A DNA stretch of 13,608 nucleotides from Candidatus Hodarchaeota archaeon (GCA_029856365.1 JAHQWW010000101.1:1-13608), one strand, 5' to 3'. Numbered from the stretch's first letter, positions 747 to 13,608 are shown. Translations and numbers: made by a program. The notes: generated by a model from the sequence alone, not told the origin.

Positions 747-1229
747 TTAATTAGACATTGCTTTTATCTTATCAGCTATCTCTTTCGCCCAGCTTTCAGC
801 ACGATCTAATTCTCCCTCTCTTAATGGACCTTTTCTTCCATTAACGATGAATCCTTCTGGTTCCGTAATAAGAACCTTATCTTGCTTTTTCAAGTTATTG
901 GCAATTCTTACCGCTGCGTGACCGAAAAACTGTTCTATCTTAGCGAGAAACCCAGTTGATGACGTTCGAGTATCAAAAGCAGCAACTCTAACACTAGACA
1001 TTGACAGTTTTGAAATTTTCTTGAGGAAGTCTTGAACCGCTTCCGTATATCTACCACCATGAGTAGGGGAACCAATGATCAATAAGTCTAATTCTGATAA
1101 TATTGCCTCCTTCATTTCAGTTGCTTTGACTATCCTAACATTATTGTACTCATCAAAAGCTTTTCCCATGGCTAGGGCAATTTGTTCAGTATGACCAAAA
1201 ACTGAATCATAAATAATTAGCACATTCAT
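747..1229 (-). CDS. Flavodoxin family protein (FMN-binding)
   Basis: FMN phosphate loop YDSVFGHTEQIA, then IIGSPTHGG, AAFDT and a C-terminal GPLREGELDRAESWA. ATG at 1229 (alternative TTG at 1235) lies downstream of a GGAG RBS. Confidence 0.92.
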   Translation of the reverse strand: MNVLIIYDSVFGHTEQIALAMGKAFDEYNNVRIVKATEMKEAILSELDLLIIGSPTHGGRYTEAVQDFLKKISKLSMSSVRVAAFDTRTSSTGFLAKIEQFFGHAAVRIANNLKKQDKVLITEPEGFIVNGRKGPLREGELDRAESWAKEIADKIKAMSN

Positions 1230-1720
1230 TAACAAAAATCTCCGTTTGAAAAAAACCTTAATTAAAGTTTGCTTAAATATTATTGGAAAGTGGATTCACT
1301 AATTAGCAAAAAAACAAATACTGTACAAATGAAGCCCTCTTATTACTATAAAGAGACAACAAGCTCATTTCACAAATTTTTCGGAACAAATCGTTGGATT
1401 GGTTAATGTATATTTACATATAGACTATGTGAAGTGAATGTAAAGCTTTTCATGAGTTAAACGTTGGTATTACACACAAACCTCCTTATATCATAAAAAA
1501 AAACTTCAAATACCCAATGTATGATATCCTGAAAGAGACTTTTGAAACTTCCAAAGCCTTCATTAACAATGACAACATTTTAGAATAAGAAACAAATAAA
1601 ATGTGTAAGAGCTTATTTTTCTAAGATTTAACCATCTGTTTGGCCAATAATTCCTTCTAGATAAAAAAAAATTGTTATTATTTTTTATCTTTAAATATAT
1701 TTGAGTATCGAATTCGGATA

Positions 1721-1936: not shown

Positions 1937-1978
1937 TTTTTAAATTCTGAGGTGTTCTGAGTTACCTGGTGTGCTCAG
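1937..1978 (+). promoter_or_regulatory. Putative promoter/operator of the toxin-antitoxin pair
   Basis: TTTTTAAAT TATA-like box at 1937-1945. Direct repeat TTCTGAG at 1945-1951 and 1955-1961. Inverted copy CTCAG at 1974-1978. RBS-like GAGGTG at 1949-1954. Confidence 0.4.
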
Positions 1979-2259
1979 TGTCCACAGTTAAGTTTGATTT
2001 ACAAGAAGATTTAGAGGAATTGCAGGCACGAATATATCTTGATACGAAAAAAAAGCTAAGTAAAAAGGATATTTTGGAGCTTGCCTTTCGAATTGGAGCT
2101 AAAAACTATGATCAATTAATCAATGAGATTCAACAGAATCAAATACCACTGAATGACAATATTATCAAATCTGTTCTAGAATTAGCCTCAGACTTCGGAG
2201 AAGGAACTGAAAAATTGTCATCTCAAATTAACAAAATTACTTACGATTTGGAGAGATAG
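1969..2259 (+). CDS. Putative antitoxin (VapB-like, small DNA-binding protein)
   Basis: 96 aa, ending 7 nt upstream of a PIN gene. The N-terminal short strand plus two helices (STVKFD...LEELQARI...LSKKDILELAF) resembles an RHH fold, and the tail is acidic. GTG start at 1969 or 1978. Confidence 0.72.
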   Translation: MCSVSTVKFDLQEDLEELQARIYLDTKKKLSKKDILELAFRIGAKNYDQLINEIQQNQIPLNDNIIKSVLELASDFGEGTEKLSSQINKITYDLER

Positions 2260-2266
2260 TTCAACC

Positions 2267-2689
2267 ATGTCTACTTTTTTGGATAGTTGCTTTTTTGTAG
2301 CTCTATTAAATACGCGAGATGAAAAGCACGATAACGCAAAAAAGCTATTAAAAATGCTTAAGAAAGCTAAATACGGATCTCTTATAACCACAGATTACGT
2401 TGTTGATGAAGTATTTACTACTATTTGGGGCCATACTCATCGAAAAGACTTAGTTATCAATGCATATAAACTTACGTGCCAGAAACCTGAATTCGTCCAA
2501 TTTAAAAAGATTGAGGATAAACATTTTGGCATATCTTGGAAAAAATGGAAACAACTAGCTGAATGGCCAAAGAAACCTCTGAGTTTTACTGATTGTACCA
2601 TTTTAGCTTTCATTGAATCAGAAAATATTGAATTTTTAGTTACATTTGATGATGAATTTGACGGATTAACTAATATTGTAAAAATCTGA
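2267..2689 (+). CDS. vapC: PIN-domain ribonuclease toxin (VapC family)
   Basis: Conserved PIN acidic residues in FLDSCFFVAL, TTDYVVDEV, LSFTDCTIL and LVTFDDEF; 140 aa. Confidence 0.92.
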   Translation: MSTFLDSCFFVALLNTRDEKHDNAKKLLKMLKKAKYGSLITTDYVVDEVFTTIWGHTHRKDLVINAYKLTCQKPEFVQFKKIEDKHFGISWKKWKQLAEWPKKPLSFTDCTILAFIESENIEFLVTFDDEFDGLTNIVKI

Positions 2690-3754: not shown

Positions 3755-4798
3755 TTAGCCATTTCGTCTATTCTGATTATCTAAAGATCGTTTAATGACA
3801 AAAAATGTCATCAGAAGGAACAAAATAATCCCAATGAATCCAGAAGTTAGATTAGAAGACGAACTAAATGCTGAACTCTCAGAGATTGAGGAAGAACTCA
3901 TTGTTGAATTCAGAGACTTATCAAATAGGTCTGTTATTCGGTGTTTTTGATATCCTTTTTCTAATTCATCATCAAGATTCATTCTTAAGGCATTATCAAA
4001 GTCAGAATAATAGTAAAGGTAAATATCTCGATTTACTAAATCGAAAATGTGACTATATACTGTAAAACCATCAAAATGGACAGCATTTAGAACTTCCTTA
4101 CACGAAATCACTGATATATTCTCCTCCTGTATGAAAGTATCCAACATTTCTTTTGAGATATTATAACGTTCCCGAGAAGAACCCACATCAGGCTGCGAAT
4201 CAGCAGGAAAAGCTATGTTCTGGTTAGTAGAAATTAAATAATTTTCAGTTTCATTATTACGAGTGAAGATCCATTGACCATCTAGTCCTATACTAGCTAC
4301 TGCAGCATCACCTGTTGCATCAGCCCAATGCGCTTGTAAGCTCACATTGTAATCATAATCGGTTCCGTGTAAAGAAAAGTAATTTTCGATATCCTTGACT
4401 AATTCAAACTGTTCTAAAAAATAAAAATAGTTGTAATAGCTACCAGGTGGGAATGGAGTCTTTTCAGGATTTGCAAATATTGTCTTAGGGGGAACCCAAT
4501 TTTCATCATAACACAAACCTTGATCATTCATACCACCTAATCGGGCTCCATCCCATGGATGATCATTCCCCTCATAACCAAACCAGACATATCCATGTAA
4601 ATCTCCTTGAGGAGGAACAAATGTAATATATGTACCATTAAGACCAGAGTCTTCATTACTTCCAAAATAAACCTCGTTTTCATATTTTACTGTGAAAATA
4701 GTACATGCTAAGGTTTGAGTACAAGAAATACTTGATAATCCGAGTAGAATTATTATAGAAGTCCACTTATTTATAAGTTCCAGTGTATTTGAATCCAC
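3755..4798 (-). CDS. Secreted, C-terminally anchored Ntn-hydrolase (choloylglycine hydrolase / NAAA / peptidase C45-like)
   Basis: Signal peptide ends TLA|CTIFT, so Cys32 is the predicted N-terminal nucleophile. Family motifs FGSNED, GGMNDQGL, HWADATGD, ISTNQ, RY and TVYSHIFDL. A Ser-rich linker precedes TSGF, a TM helix and a basic tail. Confidence 0.88.
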   Translation of the reverse strand: MDSNTLELINKWTSIIILLGLSSISCTQTLACTIFTVKYENEVYFGSNEDSGLNGTYITFVPPQGDLHGYVWFGYEGNDHPWDGARLGGMNDQGLCYDENWVPPKTIFANPEKTPFPPGSYYNYFYFLEQFELVKDIENYFSLHGTDYDYNVSLQAHWADATGDAAVASIGLDGQWIFTRNNETENYLISTNQNIAFPADSQPDVGSSRERYNISKEMLDTFIQEENISVISCKEVLNAVHFDGFTVYSHIFDLVNRDIYLYYYSDFDNALRMNLDDELEKGYQKHRITDLFDKSLNSTMSSSSISESSAFSSSSNLTSGFIGIILFLLMTFFVIKRSLDNQNRRNG

Positions 4799-5922: not shown

Positions 5923-6648
5923 ATGAAATTCACGACCAGATTAGGAAGTATAGGAATCTTATTAGTTGTGATGATATCAATAGGATTATCACAAGCAAGA
6001 GTCTCCGAACCAATACTTACTTGGCAAGTAAAAACAGGAGATACTATCAAGCTTATCTATACTAAACTCTACGTAGAAGGTGAATCAGCTCAGAACATCA
6101 CATACTGGAATGAGAATGATGAACCAATAAATGTTACCATAACTAAAGGAACCACTCTAGAATTTATAATCACTTACTTAAATACTTCAGTAGAAAATCC
6201 AGAGGTAAGAGGGAAATCCATAATTAACGGAGAAGTAACAACTAAAGAAATTTCGTGGCATCAATCAAATCCAAATGTGATAATCGTTCCAACAATCGAC
6301 AACAAGACATATTGGAAAGAATGGTGTTGCCTTAAAAACTCCGAAATAGAATCTGAAGCATACAGGATTGAGGGTGATCTCTTGGTTTACGATCCAGACA
6401 TAGAGGGAGAGAAGAGTAATTTTGCTGTTAAGATTTTAAGAAAAAGGAATTGGAAAACAGGGTGGTTGATATATCAATACCTACAAGGATGGATAGGTAA
6501 TGAAATGATTGAGGAATTTGAAATTGTAGCAGAGGAATACATAGCTTCAAAAAATGAAATTACATCATTGGGAATGATTTCAGTAGCTTTTGGATTCTTT
6601 TTTGCTGTTATAATTTCATATCGGCATCATACAAGAAAAGAAGAATAA
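5923..6648 (+). CDS. Secreted/cell-surface hypothetical protein with C-terminal TM anchor
   Basis: N-terminal signal peptide (MKFTTRLGSIGILLVVMISIGLSQA) and a beta-rich body with several N-x-S/T sequons (NIT, NVT, NTS, NKT). C-terminal TM helix followed by RHHTRKEE. Confidence 0.8.
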   Translation: MKFTTRLGSIGILLVVMISIGLSQARVSEPILTWQVKTGDTIKLIYTKLYVEGESAQNITYWNENDEPINVTITKGTTLEFIITYLNTSVENPEVRGKSIINGEVTTKEISWHQSNPNVIIVPTIDNKTYWKEWCCLKNSEIESEAYRIEGDLLVYDPDIEGEKSNFAVKILRKRNWKTGWLIYQYLQGWIGNEMIEEFEIVAEEYIASKNEITSLGMISVAFGFFFAVIISYRHHTRKEE

Positions 6649-7016: not shown

Positions 7017-9770
7017 TTATGTTAATATCTCTAATTGCTCTTTTAATTGAGATTTTTTATTTTTTAATTCTGCTAACTTCTCTTCCTCTTTTTCTACGAT
7101 CTCAGGAGGTGCTTTTTGCACAAATGGGCCTTTTAATTTTATAGATATCTGTTCTATATTCTTCTTAACTTTGATTAATTGTTTTTCTACTTTTCTCTTC
7201 TCTTTTTCTAGGTCAATTAATTCTTCTAGAGGAATGTACGCAGTTAAACCAGGTATGACAACTCGAGCAGCTCGTTTTGATGGTTCTTTTTCAGATGAAA
7301 TTGTTATTTTCGCGGGATCGATTTTCGCTAAAGTAATTATTTCTCTTCTTGTTTTTTCGAATGTAGCGATATTTTCACCTGTTTTTATTTGTAAGGGAAT
7401 TGTTTTACTTAATCCAACATTAAATACTGCCCGAATTCGCCTTATTTCATGAATTAAATCTGTTGTGAACTGGAACTCCTCTTCCAGTTTTTCATCAATG
7501 AACGTATCAGTATATTCTGGCCATTTAGCAACAATTATTGCTGGTCCACGTCTAATATTAGCAGGTAGATTCTGCCATAATTTCTCGGTAATAAACGGAA
7601 CAATCGGGTGAAGTAATTTAAATGTAATATCTAAAATATGGACTAAAATAGCTTTAGGAATGATCTTCTCTTCTTCATTCTCACCATATAGACGAATTTT
7701 AGATATTTCAATGTACCAGTCACAGAATTCATTCCAATAGAAGTTCTTAATTTCGCGTGAGGCCCTTAGGTAATCAAATGACTCCATACATTCTGTAACT
7801 GTTTTTACAAGTTGATTTAATCGGGATAAAATCCATTTATCAGGAATACCAAGGTCTTCTTTCTTGATTTCATTTATTGTTTGGATATTTTCATCTTTTT
7901 GGATATTATTAAGTACAAAACGAGTTGATTGCCAGATTTTATTCAGAAAGTGATGAGCACTGTCTAGTTGTCTTGGGTCTAAATTTGTGTCAATACCAGG
8001 AATGCTATTAGATATTAGAACATATCGTAATGAATCAGCCCCGTGTTCAAATATGATGTGTAGGGGATCGTATTTATCGACATCCTCCATAGACTTACTA
8101 ATCTTTCTACCCCTTTCATCTCGAATGAGCCCATGGAGATACACTGTCTTATAAGGAACCTTCCCTGTTAGTTCAATTCCTAACATCATTTCTCTGGCTA
8201 CCCAAAAGAATAGAATGTCATATCCTGTTTCTCTTGTACTTGTGGGGTAAAATCGTTGATAATCTGCACTCTCAATATTTGGCCAACCAAGTGTTGCATA
8301 GGGCCATAATCCACTTGAAAACCAAGTATCTAAGACATCTTCTTCTTGTGTTAAATTGTTACTACTACAGTTTGGGCATTTTTGAGGGTCATCCACATTT
8401 GGTGAAGGACAGATTTCTTCAGAACAGTCAGTACAATACCAAATTGGTATCCTATGGCCCCACCAAAGTTGTCTGGAGATACACCAATCATGAATATTTT
8501 CCATCCATTGGAAGAATCTTTTCTCTTCCCTTTTAGGGATAATTATTGTTTCTTTTTTTCGGACTTTATCCATGGCTGCTTCTGCTAGCGGTTTGGTTTT
8601 GACAAACCATTGAATAGATACTCTCGGCTCAACTAAAGTGTGACATCTTTGACAATGAGGTTCTTGATGAAGATAGGGTTCGATTTTAACAAGTAATCTT
8701 TCTTTCTCTAAATCTTTGACAATAGCTTCCCGACATTCAAATCGATCCATTCCAACATAAGGACCTGAATGTTCAGGAAGCATAGTTACTGCTTCATCTA
8801 GAATAGTTATTACTTCTAAATTATGCTGTTGGCCAATCTCGAAGTCATTAGGATCATGGCCAGGAGTAATTTTTAAAGCTCCTGTTCCAAATTCAGGATC
8901 TACGTAATCGTCAACGAAAATTGGAATTTCACGAGCGTTTACTGGTAGAATAGCTTTCTTAGTGACAAATTTCCCATATTCCTTATGATTTGCCGCAATA
9001 GCAACGCCTGTATCGCCTAAAAGAGTCTCGGGCCGAGTTGTAGCTACAACAATGAAATCTGATGCTCCTTCGGCCCACTTTCCGCTTCCCCATTCATGAA
9101 TAGGTTTTTCCCAGCTCTTACTTACAATTGGATATTTGATATACCATAAATGGCTGGCTTTTTCTTCAGATTCTGTTTCCAGATCAGAAATAGCTGATTC
9201 ACACCGAGGACACCAATTAATCATGTATTCGCCTCGATAAATCAAGCCTTTAGTATATAACCGATAAAAGGCCTCTCGAACAGCTTCTACATAGTTTGCA
9301 TCTAGTGTAAAGTGTTCACGGTCCCAGTCGCTACTCATTCCCATTCGTTTTGACTGTTCTGTTATCCGAGCTTGGTATATGTACTTCCATTCCCACACTT
9401 TTTCAACAAATTTTTCACGACCCAAGTTTTTCCTCTTAATTCCTTGTTTTAATAATTCTCTTTCAACGACATTTTGTGTAGCAATTCCCGCGTGATCAGT
9501 ACCAGGTATGAATAATGCTTCTTTCTGTTTCATCCTCTCATATCGAGTCATCGTGTCTTCAATGGATATAGTGACTGCATGACCTAGATGCAAAATTCCT
9601 GTTACATTTGGTAATGGAATAGTGATACAAAATCTGGGGCTTATTTTTCTATCTACCAATCCCAATTCGATTTGTTTTTCAGGTTTGAAAAAGCCCTCTC
9701 CTTCCCACCATTGATAGATTTCTTCTTCAATGTCGTGATGTTCATAAGACGTGGCAAGTCCATCTTTCAT
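7017..9770 (-). CDS. valS: Valine--tRNA ligase (bacterial/eukaryotic type, with C-terminal coiled-coil arm)
   Basis: PLPNVTGILHLGH (HIGH), GTDHAGIATQ, ATTRPET editing motif, GTGALKITPGHD, WCISRQLWWGHRIP, DVLDTWFSS and KISKS (KMSKS), plus a C-terminal coiled coil. GGAG RBS on the minus strand at 9779-9782. Confidence 0.98.
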   Translation of the reverse strand: MKDGLATSYEHHDIEEEIYQWWEGEGFFKPEKQIELGLVDRKISPRFCITIPLPNVTGILHLGHAVTISIEDTMTRYERMKQKEALFIPGTDHAGIATQNVVERELLKQGIKRKNLGREKFVEKVWEWKYIYQARITEQSKRMGMSSDWDREHFTLDANYVEAVREAFYRLYTKGLIYRGEYMINWCPRCESAISDLETESEEKASHLWYIKYPIVSKSWEKPIHEWGSGKWAEGASDFIVVATTRPETLLGDTGVAIAANHKEYGKFVTKKAILPVNAREIPIFVDDYVDPEFGTGALKITPGHDPNDFEIGQQHNLEVITILDEAVTMLPEHSGPYVGMDRFECREAIVKDLEKERLLVKIEPYLHQEPHCQRCHTLVEPRVSIQWFVKTKPLAEAAMDKVRKKETIIIPKREEKRFFQWMENIHDWCISRQLWWGHRIPIWYCTDCSEEICPSPNVDDPQKCPNCSSNNLTQEEDVLDTWFSSGLWPYATLGWPNIESADYQRFYPTSTRETGYDILFFWVAREMMLGIELTGKVPYKTVYLHGLIRDERGRKISKSMEDVDKYDPLHIIFEHGADSLRYVLISNSIPGIDTNLDPRQLDSAHHFLNKIWQSTRFVLNNIQKDENIQTINEIKKEDLGIPDKWILSRLNQLVKTVTECMESFDYLRASREIKNFYWNEFCDWYIEISKIRLYGENEEEKIIPKAILVHILDITFKLLHPIVPFITEKLWQNLPANIRRGPAIIVAKWPEYTDTFIDEKLEEEFQFTTDLIHEIRRIRAVFNVGLSKTIPLQIKTGENIATFEKTRREIITLAKIDPAKITISSEKEPSKRAARVVIPGLTAYIPLEELIDLEKEKRKVEKQLIKVKKNIEQISIKLKGPFVQKAPPEIVEKEEEKLAELKNKKSQLKEQLEILT

Positions 9771-10104
9771 ATCTATTTCTCCATATAAGTAAGCAAAATG
9801 TATTGTTTGTAGGTCGCAAGACTGATTGTATGAAGAATTATCCTAGAAATTGCCTTAGCTTCGCACTTTTTCCGATTATTTATAGAATTTTTTTGAATTA
9901 TTTTTAACCAATTTAAAACTATTTAAATCATATCATTTCGTCTTGATCTTAACTAGTTCAAGTCTGAAACTCTGGTTTTATCTTTATCTAGACATTGATC
10001 TTCTATTCATTTTTTCTGATAATTTTCCAGTTCGTTGGTCAGAATTATTCCCAAAATAGTTAGATGCTGATTGGGTTTTTAGAAACTCTTTACCACTGTT
10101 ATTG

Positions 10105-10151
10105 TGAAATTTTTTATAACTGAAGTACAAACTAGTTGGTCTAACCGAGGT
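10105..10151 (+). promoter_or_regulatory. Archaeal-type promoter and RBS for the NTPase operon
   Basis: GAAA followed by TTTTTTATAA (~10110-10119) about 45 nt upstream of ATG 10161; GAGGT RBS at 10147-10151. Confidence 0.5.
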
Positions 10152-10160
10152 TAACTCTAC

Positions 10161-11891
10161 ATGTGTCCGTATGATAGTTTTTTGAAGCCATGTGAACCCC
10201 ATTTAGTCGTAGGTCGACGAAGCCATGAGAAACGCTTTGAAACGATATTATCCGATTTTAAAGGAGAAAAACTAAAGGAAAATTTCATACTCATTTCTGG
10301 ATCACCCGGCATTGGGAAAACTAGCTTGCTGAACGTTTTTGGTGAGATCGTTAGAAATGAGATGATGGCTTATGGTCAAGTTACAGTCGGAATGGGCGGA
10401 AAAATGAATCGCAACTTATTCCGTGATATATATCAAGCAATTTCACCTTATTTAACAGAAGAAAAGAAGGGATTCTTTAAGAGATCAAAGGAAGAAGAGA
10501 TAAAATCATTTCCTCCGAAATCACAAATATCTGAAATTATCAGTAGTTTTACTAATAATTTAACAGCTCGCCCTCCTAAATCCCCAATTGTAATTGCTTT
10601 AGATCCCATTGATCGGATATCAGATTCTGGTCAAAACTATGTAATTAGTGGGCTAGCTGATCTGCTAAAAGTTCTTCAAAGCAAATTTCCACAATTATTA
10701 TTTATTGGTACAATCCAAGAATACAACTTAGATGAGATTAAAGAACTTCTCCAAATTAGTGAGCATTTTGTGTTAGATAGACTGGATTTTTCTGATTCAA
10801 AACTTCTCCTCTCTAAAATTGCCCGTGGAAAGTTGCAGACTAGTAGTCAATTACGTGATGAACTTGTAAAACAGAGCGATCGTTCACCTTTCAACCTTGT
10901 TTTCGTCGTAGATGTCGTCCGATGGGCTGAAGACAAAATTGAACGAGAAGGATTAGATGAAAGTGAGAGAATAATCCAAGAAATAGCTAAACCTTTCATT
11001 CGTACCTTCGCACTTAGGGCCTTTCTCCAAGAGATATTTAAAATTGATGAGGAAGAAAATAAATTACTTCAATTGATGTTAGGCTCCCCCCGAAATGCTG
11101 TTCCCCAAGAAACATTTGACTCAGCGAGAATTCCAAAGGATTTAATCAATAGCTTAGAAACTAAAGGTTTAATTCAAAAGCTAGGTGATTATTACCAATT
11201 TCCAAGCTATGCTGTATTTTCTCTTTTGGGGTCAGGGCTTACAGTCGTTGATTTAAAAGCTGAAGCCAGTTTACTACTCCAGATTCTTGAAGCAGATATG
11301 ATGATGGGATTTGAAATGAATCCAAAGGTTCTGGAACGATTAGAGCAGGCATCATACTCAACAGAACGATTGGAAGACAAATCCATCCCTAATCGATCAA
11401 AATCTCTTTATCAAAGTGCTTTCGAGGCTAAGAAATTCTTTGAAGCATACCGCCTAGCACTTCTAACAGGAAATTTTCTGCGAATGGCGAAAGATACTGA
11501 GGGTAGTGGCGTTTTCTTCGAAGAATGTGCCCAAGCGTTCTATAATCAGGAGAAAATCCCGTACACGGTAGCTCTTTATCGTAAAAGTATCGAATCTTAT
11601 CGTCTTGTTAAGAATGAGCGAAAACGTAAAGATATTAGCCAACGTACAGCTATGCTGTATCTGCAAAATGCAGAAAGATATGATAAACAAAAACAATTAG
11701 AATTAGCCCGATCGTCATATTTCCATGCATTCAAGCTATTTGAAGGAGCAGATGATGTTAATTCGGCCATAGATGCAATTAATAAAGCAATCAGAACTTA
11801 TACTTCAGATATACAAGCCCAATTTTTTAAAAACCTTTTAGCAAGTACTACACCTAAATCGGTGGAGGTTTCTCCCGAAACCAATATTTAA
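10161..11891 (+). CDS. STAND-like / AAA_16-like P-loop NTPase with probable winged-helix and C-terminal alpha-SNAP/TPR-like repeats
   Basis: N-terminal VVGR (hhGR), Walker A GSPGIGKTS (10299-10325), Walker B-like IVIALDPID (10587-10613), GxP-equivalent SDRSPFNL, wHTH-like INSLETKGLIQK...YQF, and TPR/SNAP-like helices from ~aa 428. Confidence 0.8.
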   Translation: MCPYDSFLKPCEPHLVVGRRSHEKRFETILSDFKGEKLKENFILISGSPGIGKTSLLNVFGEIVRNEMMAYGQVTVGMGGKMNRNLFRDIYQAISPYLTEEKKGFFKRSKEEEIKSFPPKSQISEIISSFTNNLTARPPKSPIVIALDPIDRISDSGQNYVISGLADLLKVLQSKFPQLLFIGTIQEYNLDEIKELLQISEHFVLDRLDFSDSKLLLSKIARGKLQTSSQLRDELVKQSDRSPFNLVFVVDVVRWAEDKIEREGLDESERIIQEIAKPFIRTFALRAFLQEIFKIDEEENKLLQLMLGSPRNAVPQETFDSARIPKDLINSLETKGLIQKLGDYYQFPSYAVFSLLGSGLTVVDLKAEASLLLQILEADMMMGFEMNPKVLERLEQASYSTERLEDKSIPNRSKSLYQSAFEAKKFFEAYRLALLTGNFLRMAKDTEGSGVFFEECAQAFYNQEKIPYTVALYRKSIESYRLVKNERKRKDISQRTAMLYLQNAERYDKQKQLELARSSYFHAFKLFEGADDVNSAIDAINKAIRTYTSDIQAQFFKNLLASTTPKSVEVSPETNI

Positions 11892-11893
11892 CG

Positions 11894-11898
11894 GGTGA
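11894..11898 (+). promoter_or_regulatory. Ribosome-binding site GGTGA in the 12-nt spacer between the NTPase and coiled-coil genes
   Basis: TAA(11889-91)-CG-GGTGA-GAATT-ATG(11904). Confidence 0.65.
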
Positions 11899-11903
11899 GA
11901 ATT

Positions 11904-13608
11904 ATGAGTACAGAACAGGATGAAAAAATTAGTAGAATAAAAGACCATAAAGAAAAGATTGAAAGTGAAAATACTCAAATTCAGAAGAGAATTCTTGATT
12001 TTCAAAAAGAAAGCAAAAAAGCGTTAGAAAGTTTTTCTAGCAGCCTAGCCCAATCCAAAGATAGTACTCTTTCTGAAATCAACTCTTTAATAAATAATAT
12101 CGATAATCTTACAAGAGAATTAGAGGATTATAAGAAGAAAACCATTGTATCAGAGCAAGATGCATTAAACGACCGTTTGAACAATTTATTGGAACAAATT
12201 AATTCCAGTGTTCAGAAACTTCAGAAATCAATGGTTAATTTATCAACAAAACAGGAAGAGGATGTTTCTTCTATTTATTCTCAAATGGCGGGAAAAGTCA
12301 ACACTGGCTTGAGTGATATTTATTCCATTCAACGGGATCAAATCTCTGAATTTGAGGATTCCATTTCCAATAAATTAGCTCAGATTCAACGTGATATTGT
12401 AAGTACGGTAGAAAGTGAAAGCGCTAATCAAAGAGAAATGACTGAAAATATTACCTCCTCATTTTTGGAATCATTAACTGATTTTCAGGCTAAAATCAGA
12501 GATCTTAGTGACTCCAAAGAAACTAATGTTGATGCTATCTTTACGGGTACCGTAAGTGACTCTGTGGGGCGGCTGGAGATGGCCAAAGAGGATTTAGAAG
12601 CAGGTATCGATGGTGTGATGAATAGTCTTGAAGAAAGTCTGGCAAGTCAAAAAGCTAACAATAGAGAGATGCAAAAAGCCATTCATGAAGCCATAATAAA
12701 AGCAAAGTCAGATGTTAAAGCTAGGATTGAGAACCAACTGATTGAAGCGATTAAAGATTGGAAATCAGTACAAGAAGGGCATCAAAGTGCTTTCTCCGTG
12801 ATTAAAGAAACTACTGAGAAATCTTTTCAAAGTGCTTTGGCATCGGATGAAAGCTCCCAAGCTAATATGTTAACAGAGCTAGAACATCAACTTAAGACAA
12901 ATTTATATAATGAAATTGACAATATTACGCTCTCATTCAGTAAATTCCAAGATTCATTTCTTAATCAAATTGATGCGCTTATATCTCGGTTAACTAGTGC
13001 ACGTGAGGAGATGAAAGGGAGTTTAGAGGGTCTTCTCATAACTAACTTAAATAAAATCGGTGTCATAGGGAAAAAACTCGAAGACCAGCTCTCAGGAGTC
13101 ATCTCTCAAGTTTCCGATGAATATAAACAGACTCGTGAAAGTACTTACTCTAGTTTAATGAATACTGTTGAAGATAGATTCAGTGCAATTGATTCATCCT
13201 TAGAAGAATTCAAAGCGAATACATCTACCAAGTTTGATGAAACTGCATCTGATTTAGATGTTTCCATGATGAATTTTTTCGATAATACAGAGATTATTGT
13301 CAGTGATACAATTGATAAAAATGCTAGTACACTTGATCAACTAGAAAATACGGTGAATGAATCATTCAGAACTCTTCAATCAGGACAGGAAAAGAATATC
13401 GAAACTACTCTCACAGACATTCGGAGTAACTTACGAAATAAACAGAGTGAATTGATCACTACTATTAGCAGCATTTCGCCTGCAGCTGAAGACCATATTG
13501 AATCTAATCGGGAATACATCGAGGAAAAGAAATCCGAAGTAACAAGAACAAGTAGAGCAGCATTTGATGATCTTAGGAAGCAAATAACTGCTATTAAGCA
13601 AGATGGGA
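11904..13608 (+). CDS. Large all-helical coiled-coil protein with 11-residue periodicity (partial, 3' end outside the window; absent from the ORF track)
   Basis: Open from ATG 11904 to the window end (568 codons: MSTEQDEKISRIKDHKEKIESENTQIQKRILDFQKES...DDLRKQITAIKQDG). In my manual translation it has one Pro and no Cys, is rich in S/E/D/K/Q/I/L, and shows no TM segment. Confidence 0.92.
   Translation, partial: MSTEQDEKISRIKDHKEKIESENTQIQKRILDFQKESKKALESFSSSLAQSKDSTLSEINSLINNIDNLTRELEDYKKKTIVSEQDALNDRLNNLLEQINSSVQKLQKSMVNLSTKQEEDVSSIYSQMAGKVNTGLSDIYSIQRDQISEFEDSISNKLAQIQRDIVSTVESESANQREMTENITSSFLESLTDFQAKIRDLSDSKETNVDAIFTGTVSDSVGRLEMAKEDLEAGIDGVMNSLEESLASQKANNREMQKAIHEAIIKAKSDVKARIENQLIEAIKDWKSVQEGHQSAFSVIKETTEKSFQSALASDESSQANMLTELEHQLKTNLYNEIDNITLSFSKFQDSFLNQIDALISRLTSAREEMKGSLEGLLITNLNKIGVIGKKLEDQLSGVISQVSDEYKQTRESTYSSLMNTVEDRFSAIDSSLEEFKANTSTKFDETASDLDVSMMNFFDNTEIIVSDTIDKNASTLDQLENTVNESFRTLQSGQEKNIETTLTDIRSNLRNKQSELITTISSISPAAEDHIESNREYIEEKKSEVTRTSRAAFDDLRKQITAIKQDG

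Follow-up and report, generated by a model that had tools for sequence, protein, structure and literature searches.

A switch-type NTPase gene paired with a long coiled-coil gene in Asgard archaea

STAND proteins (signal transduction ATPases with numerous domains) join a P-loop nucleotide-binding domain (NBD), a helical domain and a winged helix to a helical-repeat sensor, as in MalT of Escherichia coli (PDB 8bob) and a STAND-TPR protein of Pyrococcus (6mfv). They normally have an effector domain as well, which in MalT is a LuxR DNA-binding domain. Here we analysed a DNA stretch of 13,608 nucleotides (nt) from a Candidatus Hodarchaeota archaeon (GCA_029856365.1, JAHQWW010000101.1:1-13608; hereafter the window), in which a gene for an NTPase of this kind (gene A, 10161-11891, plus strand) is followed by a gene for a long coiled-coil protein (gene B, 11904-13608, plus strand). 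The window is one entire contig (13.6 kb) of a metagenome-assembled genome of 4.2 Mb that is 84% complete and is placed in the Hodarchaeales/Heimdallarchaeia of the Asgard archaea. Protein A shares the domain series of MalT and 6mfv but has no effector, is always paired with long coiled-coil proteins, and belongs to a family that is small and, where its members are named, restricted to Asgard archaea, in contrast to MalT-type STANDs.

For protein B, the closest structural precedents are hendecad coiled coils, such as the peripheral stalk of A/V-type ATPases (PMC3293630), tetrabrachion and filament proteins of the Scy/FilP type. They show the same 11-residue hydrophobic repeat and are straight or right-handed, and by analogy a rod-like structural role for B is plausible. 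However, none of them is related to B in sequence or paired with a STAND NTPase, and B keeps a single register over ~700 residues. The tail of ZorA is a continuous right-handed pentameric coiled coil of ~70 nm (PMC11946911). ZorA thus resembles B in having a very long unbroken helix with a right-handed type of periodicity, and it forms a homo-oligomeric rod of tens of nanometres, but B and the giant rod described below have no MotA-like (MotA/ExbB-type) membrane motor, no ZorB, ZorC or ZorD, and no defence context. The likeness probably reflects the repeat pattern rather than descent, which would make ZorA a structural precedent and not a relative. TrmB proteins are 250-350 amino acids (aa) long. 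A TrmB winged-helix head is found on the usual third protein of the locus and on an 802-aa paralogue of it, where it precedes 700-1,700 aa of rod, while A and B have no TrmB part.

Asgard archaea are among the closest microbial relatives of eukaryotes and have been searched heavily for the roots of eukaryotic cell organisation, with a focus on eukaryote-like actin, ESCRT, small GTPases and SNARE-like proteins. The three-gene module to which we assign A and B is instead built from prokaryotic parts, and its products would combine rods of 50-200 nm, a sizeable share of a cell diameter, with a nucleotide switch and a DNA-binding head. A literature search found no description of this module; its parts are of known kinds, and the system as a whole fits no described one. 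New here are the Hodarchaeales form of the module with a detached giant rod, the arguments from phase continuity and from a 55-residue deletion for a continuous rod, a specificity control for the SNAP likeness together with a transitive link to SNAP-positive TPR domains, a conserved promoter block, and the synteny of smc, scpA, a rod gene and scpB.

Gene order and the third partner

All eight Hodarchaeales loci showed gene A followed after 5-16 nt by gene B, and the flanking genes differed between loci. Across the loci compared, which included at least five further families or classes beyond Hodarchaeales, the gap between A and the hendecad protein was 0-16 nt. The pairing spans Heimdallarchaeia, Borrarchaeum and Jordarchaeales, and the two genes were adjacent in every related locus with downstream room except a Helarchaeota-labelled one, which has no separate B. 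In other Heimdallarchaeia families, an A of 556-589 aa (~20% identical) precedes a hendecad protein of 319-482 aa, and a third gene, with 1,257-1,489 aa (1,100-1,800 aa overall outside Hodarchaeales), comes next. The first ~75 residues of this third protein form a TrmB winged helix (Pfam 32-37 bits in the other Heimdallarchaeia families, above the cut-off), behind which come a hendecad rod and, at the C-terminus, an alpha/beta domain. All carrier classes outside Hodarchaeales keep the order NTPase, rod, TrmB-headed giant, with the Helarchaeota-labelled locus lacking the separate B. As judged from this gene order, A and B are two parts of a three-gene module (NTPase, rod and TrmB-headed rod) conserved in Asgard archaea.

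An earlier reading of the window, made from its sequence alone (the sequence-only reading), had linked the two proteins functionally and had set gene-neighbourhood conservation beforehand as a check that could fail; synteny of A with the coiled-coil gene proved to be kept far beyond close relatives. It had also considered that the coiled-coil gene might turn out to be a TrmB fusion. B has no TrmB part, and it is the usual downstream neighbour that carries the TrmB head.

In the genome studied here, the gene for the giant rod does not adjoin A and B but lies on a different contig (G000:C88:6445-11043); it encodes 1,533 aa, and the TrmB head passes the Pfam cut-off with 28.5 bits. In the complete relative genome G009, the giant lies ~8 kb from the A-B pair, with inserted metabolic genes between them. 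We also observed 'mini' giants of 715-734 aa in four genomes (G009:C1:3187107-3189251, equivalent to L090:7105-9252, and on G011:C3, G012:C105 and G019:C5), which have the same head and tail with most of the rod gone; the one in G009 adjoins genes for small Rab-like GTPases.

A profile search for A covered 250 Asgard genomes. Full-length A was found in all sampled genomes of eight families and in some genomes of a ninth, and three large Asgard families gave no match (0/59, 0/54 and 0/19). Carriers with names were Borrarchaeum, Jordarchaeales and Heimdallarchaeota, and remoter full-length relatives (E ~1e-38) bore Helarchaeota and Lokiarchaeota labels. Among 1.84 billion representatives, the A family comprised 37 at E <= 1e-30, after which scores fell sharply to generic STAND/ORC proteins; among the records bearing a name, the family occurred only in Asgard ones.

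The third partner, with its TrmB head on a giant rod, points to DNA rather than to membranes, and a membrane link, part of the sequence-only reading, found no support in our analysis. A further TrmB-headed hendecad rod, the 802-aa paralogue, has its gene on contig C18 of this genome (L091:1453-9606). A probable scpA (282 aa) and scpB (Pfam SMC_ScpB, E 6.8e-18) flank this gene, which lies on the strand opposite to theirs, and smc (1,196 aa) adjoins. The same order of scpA, rod and scpB with smc was present in three other genomes of the genus, G009, G002 and G010. In a fourth (G001), scpA and scpB flank the rod, and smc was unmatched in the stretch fetched; rod identity over the four relatives (L093, L094, L095 and L098) was 40-73%. 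A rod of the 802-aa type was not seen beside smc in two other families checked. TrmBL2, a member of the TrmB family, forms stiff filaments on DNA and stalls or positions Smc-ScpAB in Thermococcus (PMC11840125). Because an 802-aa TrmB-headed rod sits within the smc-scpA-scpB locus and TrmBL2 stalls Smc-ScpAB, the analogy would support, indirectly, a chromosome-related role for the TrmB-headed rods and hence for the module.

Architecture of the NTPase and the rod

Protein A (576 aa) matched Pfam AAA_16 (E 7.9e-10, 39.9 bits against a cut-off of 32.6) and, weakly, further P-loop families (Pfam AAA, 21.7 bits). An AlphaFold2 (AF2) model built on 20 family members (mean predicted local distance difference test score, pLDDT, 87.8) revealed an NBD of alpha/beta type, then the helical domain, a winged helix ending near residue 360 and, at residues 408-563, eight C-terminal helices, in agreement with the earlier description of A as a P-loop NTPase with a C-terminal helical repeat. 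In the Walker A motif (GSPGIGKT, aa 47-54; 10299-10322, plus strand), G50, G52 and K53 are invariant across the family alignments, as is D148 of Walker B (10602-10604, plus strand). Both motifs and a third, S239-x-R241-x-x-F244, are kept across classes, even in the orthologues with ~20% identity.

Fold searches placed A among STAND and ORC proteins. The best Foldseek match was the Pyrococcus STAND-TPR protein 6mfv (E 2.2e-9), followed by Orc1/Cdc6, archaeal ATPases of the PF01637 type, NOD2, Avs3, CED-4 and Apaf-1, with Avs5 also among the matches. In an exhaustive VIA-align search, MalT (8bob_D) was the best match (Z 16.2, root-mean-square deviation 6.4, 293 residues aligned over residues 12-371), and Orc1/Cdc6 (Z 16.0) and NLRP9/NLRP3 (Z 15) followed within ~1.5 Z; 6mfv was aligned to residues 9-567, and NSF D2 ranked only 30th in this whole-model list, which was taken up by the NTPase part and barely covered residues beyond 396. 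These results bear out the view of the sequence-only reading that the NTPase is STAND-like and not NSF-like. Of the features of STAND proteins, A has the Walker A and B motifs, the module of NBD, helical domain and winged helix, and the C-terminal repeat sensor, and it has no effector domain; it carries one ATPase domain only and lacks the classical-clade AAA+ characters of NSF and Cdc48. Since the NBD starts near residue 16 and the end of the TPR domain is near residue 565, no residues remain beside the NBD, helical, winged-helix and TPR domains, and A is a STAND/ORC-type (MalT/Orc1-like) switch NTPase with a repeat sensor and without an effector. Four orthologues in family f3 (L022, L023, L030 and L076) carry an additional acidic C-terminal tail ending in D-(D/I)-L-E-K-E-L-(D/E)-F, which is absent from the A of the window and looks like a short docking motif.

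The C-terminal domain of A (aa ~400-565; 11358-11855, plus strand) consists, in the model and by profiles, of eight helices arranged in hairpins and is of the SNAP type. To compare it with known structures, we used a profile of the domain aligned from 24 orthologues of several Asgard classes. The seven best matches among all PDB sequences were Sec17 and alpha-SNAP (E 5e-4 to 9e-3; 5e-4 to 2e-3 for 1qqe and 3j96), aligned at SNAP positions ~35-175, which lie in the N-terminal sheet, and the TPR domains of STI1/HOP ranked behind (E 0.05). The C-terminal 170 aa of A thus share the antiparallel helical hairpins of SNAP, but only the N-terminal sheet is matched; the NSF-binding C-terminal bundle is absent, as the protein ends after the eight helices, and the ATPase of A belongs to another clade than NSF. 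With the Pfam SNAP model (PF14938, cut-off 25 bits), 14 of the 24 members matched (best E 3.2e-5), all below the cut-off; the window's own domain (residues 395-576) reached 21.1 bits, and a Pfam scan of the whole protein gave no SNAP match at E <= 0.1.

As a control for specificity, PF14938 was found to match ordinary TPR proteins at 19 places in this genome, where scores reached 32.8 bits and gene A was not among the matches; of 14 prokaryotes used as controls, 10 also gave matches, E. coli and B. subtilis among them. The C-terminal region (profile positions ~437-550) further matched the C-termini of unrelated proteins among the 1.84 billion representatives (E 1e-19 to 1e-9), which themselves pass the Pfam SNAP model at 41-67 bits, and hhalign gave 96% probability for the C-terminal domain of A against one SNAP-positive archaeal TPR domain. 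ESM Atlas look-alikes of this end of A were generic TPR clusters with scores below 0.9, which serve as leads only. Judged by these profiles, the domain belongs to the SNAP-type branch of TPR-like domains. Because the Pfam SNAP model is unspecific in prokaryotes, the likeness is best described as one to a common archaeal SNAP-type TPR docking module and not to the NSF adaptor as such. The earlier claim of a SNAP-like domain therefore stands as far as the best PDB relatives and the SNAP-positive archaeal TPR kin are concerned, and falls short in that the scores stay below the Pfam cut-off of a model that is itself unspecific. In contrast to alpha-SNAP, the same domain type occurs elsewhere as the end of proteins that start with VWA, Ig-like/MSP or SBP5 solute-binding domains. 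We noted six such fusions; the named sources were Theionarchaea and Methanofastidiosia, and the rest were on metagenome contigs. The domain may be a shared cytoplasmic docking module of these fusion proteins.

Gene B is open at the contig end, and the window holds the first 568 of 718 codons. The rest of the gene was absent from the same assembly and was recovered from a near-identical strain, in which a 17-kb contig encodes the full-length protein of 718 aa (L092:5352-7508), identical at 568 of 568 residues over the shared part. With this length, B, which had been called giant in the sequence-only reading, is long rather than giant; the family ranges from 661 to 723 aa in Hodarchaeales. B is polar (S 12%, E 10%, T 9%), with a hydrophobic share of 33% and one proline in 718 residues, and we found in it no hydrophobic stretch of >=12 residues, membrane anchor or signal. 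Its hydrophobic periodicity showed a single sharp peak at 3.66-3.67, i.e., 11/3. The power at 11/3 was 47.5 for the window fragment and 60.1 for the full-length orthologue, compared with a maximum of 11.4 in 500 shuffles, or 11.3 for the fragment by itself, while the heptad power was 0.1-0.8, which is no signal. The long amphipathic helix that had been noticed in B is confirmed as helical throughout, and the SNARE-like helical bundle that had been proposed for it gives way to a hendecad rod with neither heptads nor a membrane anchor.

The AF2 model of B was all helix, with three low-confidence breaks that delimit four helices of ~170 residues (pLDDT 74); its predicted template modelling score of 0.30 makes the overall shape unreliable. 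The 11/3 phase stayed within ~60-125 degrees over residues 23-640 with no jump at the breaks. Moreover, paralogues of 661-664 aa differed from the 718-aa B by the absence of one block of exactly 55 residues (five hendecads), which contains one of the AF2 breaks, and the register was kept. We argue from the continuous phase and from this register-keeping deletion that the breaks are artefacts. Since the register is unaffected by indels and holds for >600 residues, and a fold-back bundle needs no such register, B is most likely a single uninterrupted helix in a straight or slightly right-handed coiled-coil rod of ~105 nm. The most conserved patches of B, at residues 225-237 (EDLLAGIDG), 492-505 (GQEKNIETTLTD) and 513-528, the last ending at the single invariant proline, are candidate docking sites. 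A PDB fold search with B gave no match at E <= 0.001 and returned only generic long coiled coils (arms of SMC, MukB and Rad50), and a PDB sequence search with B alone gave no match. All sequence look-alikes of B, including those discussed below, are best taken as repeat-pattern matches.

In five genomes we observed the 661-664-aa paralogue of B with no NTPase gene (L085:8088-10073, L086, L087 and L089, in G002, G013, G018 and G020; and G021:C32). In the first four, a neighbouring gene is transcribed divergently from it, whose conserved product of 1,077 aa begins with a GNAT acetyltransferase domain. Genomes with this arrangement gave no match to A, whether searched with the protein or with its profile.

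A proposed scaffold on the nucleoid and its alternatives

We tentatively read A as a hub under nucleotide control that arranges long rods, including a DNA-anchored one, in a switchable scaffold on the nucleoid, and we put the probability of this reading at roughly 0.45. In such a scaffold, B helices would pair with like helices into the ~105-nm coiled-coil rod, the TPR domain of A would dock on a conserved patch or on the end of the rods, and nucleotide-dependent oligomerisation of A would then gather or release them. The outcome would be a DNA-tethered switchable scaffold that works on the nucleoid; it would neither remodel membranes nor unfold substrates.

Several points weigh against this reading. 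The evidence for DNA concerns the third gene and a paralogue and not A or B, and the C-terminal domain of the giant, compared by sequence with Pfam and the PDB, matched no TrmB or TrmBL2 structure and no PLD. Because A has no effector domain, unlike usual STANDs, its output is a guess. The preference for a continuous helix is built on register arguments, and the four helices that AF2 draws for B could fold back to a 25-nm bundle. B paralogues occur in several Hodarchaeales genomes without any A gene, so B-type rods can work without A, and about half of the genomes of this genus, many of which are incomplete, gave no A match.

If A and the rods do form a structural system on the nucleoid, they would represent a new kind of archaeal cytoskeleton and would be relevant to the handling of large, organised genomes at a time before the nucleus existed. 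The module proteins are soluble and are expected to be easy to express, which makes direct tests possible. A bolder version of the scaffold, which we consider unlikely, is an Asgard-specific, chromosome-attached coiled-coil skeleton in which STAND hubs join B rods of 100 nm to the DNA-headed rods alongside Smc-ScpAB, shaping or partitioning the nucleoid, and which would be a functional forerunner of the nuclear scaffold. A further possibility concerns several Asgard surface receptors that carry this SNAP-type TPR domain at their cytoplasmic end, through which they could dock onto such rods.

The closest form of the earlier idea of membrane or scaffold remodelling is an amphipathic-helix coat, in which B and the giant would be laid flat against the surface of lipids or granules in the manner of apolipoproteins, perilipins or phasins, and A would regulate their loading. 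An 11/3 periodicity is typical for helices on lipid surfaces, apolipoprotein A-I was the best PDB sequence match of B (E 2.7e-5), and the Pfam Apolipoprotein model (PF01442, cut-off 90 bits) gave 70-104 bits for the giant rod and 21.9-36.7 bits for B; ESM Atlas look-alikes of B were apolipoprotein-like clusters as well, with scores below 0.9, which are leads only. However, the Pfam scores of B lie far under the cut-off, and with its one proline B has none of the Pro-punctuated 11/22-mer repeats of apolipoproteins A1, A4 and E. Its hydrophobic share of 33% suits a coiled-coil seam, and a surface-bound helix has no need of a register that persists for >600 residues and survives a 55-residue indel. 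Together with the lack of an anchor or signal in B and the DNA-binding head on the partner rod, these points make a lipid coat improbable.

Transcription control of the MalT kind is likewise doubtful. In this scheme, A would use its TPR domain as a ligand sensor and control whether the TrmB-headed protein binds DNA; B would have an accessory part, and the rods would be the long dimerisation arms of a regulator. MalT is the best fold match of A, the head of the giant passes the TrmB cut-off, and TrmB proteins are classically sugar-responsive regulators (Pfam PF01978 description). But a regulator needs neither 100-nm arms nor a second rod protein (320-770 aa), rod length and register are conserved, and no target operon is conserved beside the module, whose flanks vary between lineages.

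A role in anti-virus defence, in which A would be a STAND sensor of the Avs type that recognises a viral protein by its TPR domain, and the rods a signalling or effector part resembling the Zorya tail, is very unlikely. The combination of STAND and TPR is the Avs architecture, Avs3 and Avs5 were among the fold matches of A, and the ZorA models in PADLOC matched B (E 5.5e-12) and the giant rod (E 2.4e-18). These ZorA matches cover only the coiled-coil tail (profile positions ~220-700) and not the MotA-like membrane domain, and A itself matched no defence family in PADLOC (best 17 bits, P-loop only). The module has no nuclease, protease, pore or other effector, and the same gene order recurs in at least three Asgard classes beside housekeeping genes such as valS, unlike in defence islands.

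Least probable of all is disassembly of the NSF/SNAP kind, in which the SNAP-like domain would grip B as if it were a SNARE bundle, for the ATPase to dismantle assemblies of B: the best solved relatives of the domain do align to it through their SNARE-binding N-terminal sheet and AF2 can draw B as four equal helices, but members of the STAND/ORC group are oligomerising switches, for which substrate threading is not known, NSF D2 and the Pfam SNAP model fared as described above, the NSF-binding bundle is missing, B has neither the heptad SNARE motif (~60 aa) nor the membrane anchor of SNAREs, and a preprint on SNAREs of the Heimdall group describes no SNAP partner for them and puts forward a Cdc48-like ATPase in its place (10.64898/2026.10.19.760048).

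Operon signals and neighbouring genes

The layout of the operon in this Asgard archaeon agreed with its first description, in which the two genes were 12 nt apart with a GGTGA ribosome binding site (RBS) and shared an upstream TATA-like box. The open reading frame (ORF) of gene A ends with TAA at 11889-11891, and the 12-nt gap (cgggtgagaatt) contains the GGTGA of gene B at 11894-11898 (plus strand). The gap is too short for a second promoter, and by this layout A and B are predicted to be co-transcribed as one operon. The ORF of gene B is also open from an in-frame GTG at 11895; as the B orthologues all start with MSTEQD, the ATG at 11904-11906 is taken as the true start.

Upstream of gene A, a candidate promoter of the operon consists of a GTGAAA resembling a B recognition element (BRE) followed by a TATA box, TTTTTTATAA (10104-10119, plus strand), and lies 42-57 nt 5' of the ATG. 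This GTGAAA-TTTTTTATAA block is kept in four of six orthologous loci, those of the window, G007, G009 and G011, in intergenic DNA that has otherwise diverged. The RBS of gene A, GAGGT (10147-10151, plus strand), lies 9 nt 5' of the ATG and is kept in four orthologous loci. The block and the GAGGT would look like a BRE/TATA promoter with a Shine-Dalgarno-led start. The 15 sequencing runs listed with the sequence were all DNA metagenomes, from marine sediment, seawater and mangrove.

Elsewhere in the window, a valine-tRNA ligase (7017-9770, minus strand) is of the bacterial type with a C-terminal coiled-coil arm, scoring 1,063 bits with NCBIfam PRK05729 (above the cut-off) and 556 bits with the archaeal-type PRK13208 (below the cut-off of 738). 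A 241-aa ORF (5923-6648, plus strand) matches no family, and a 347-aa ORF (3755-4798, minus strand) had a weak acyltransferase (AAT) match only. A 162-aa ORF (747-1235, minus strand) is flavodoxin-like. A 96-aa ORF (1969-2259, plus strand) is followed after 7 nt by a gene for a 140-aa PIN-domain protein (2267-2689, plus strand; Pfam PIN, E 6.5e-11), and the two look like a toxin-antitoxin pair of the VapBC type.

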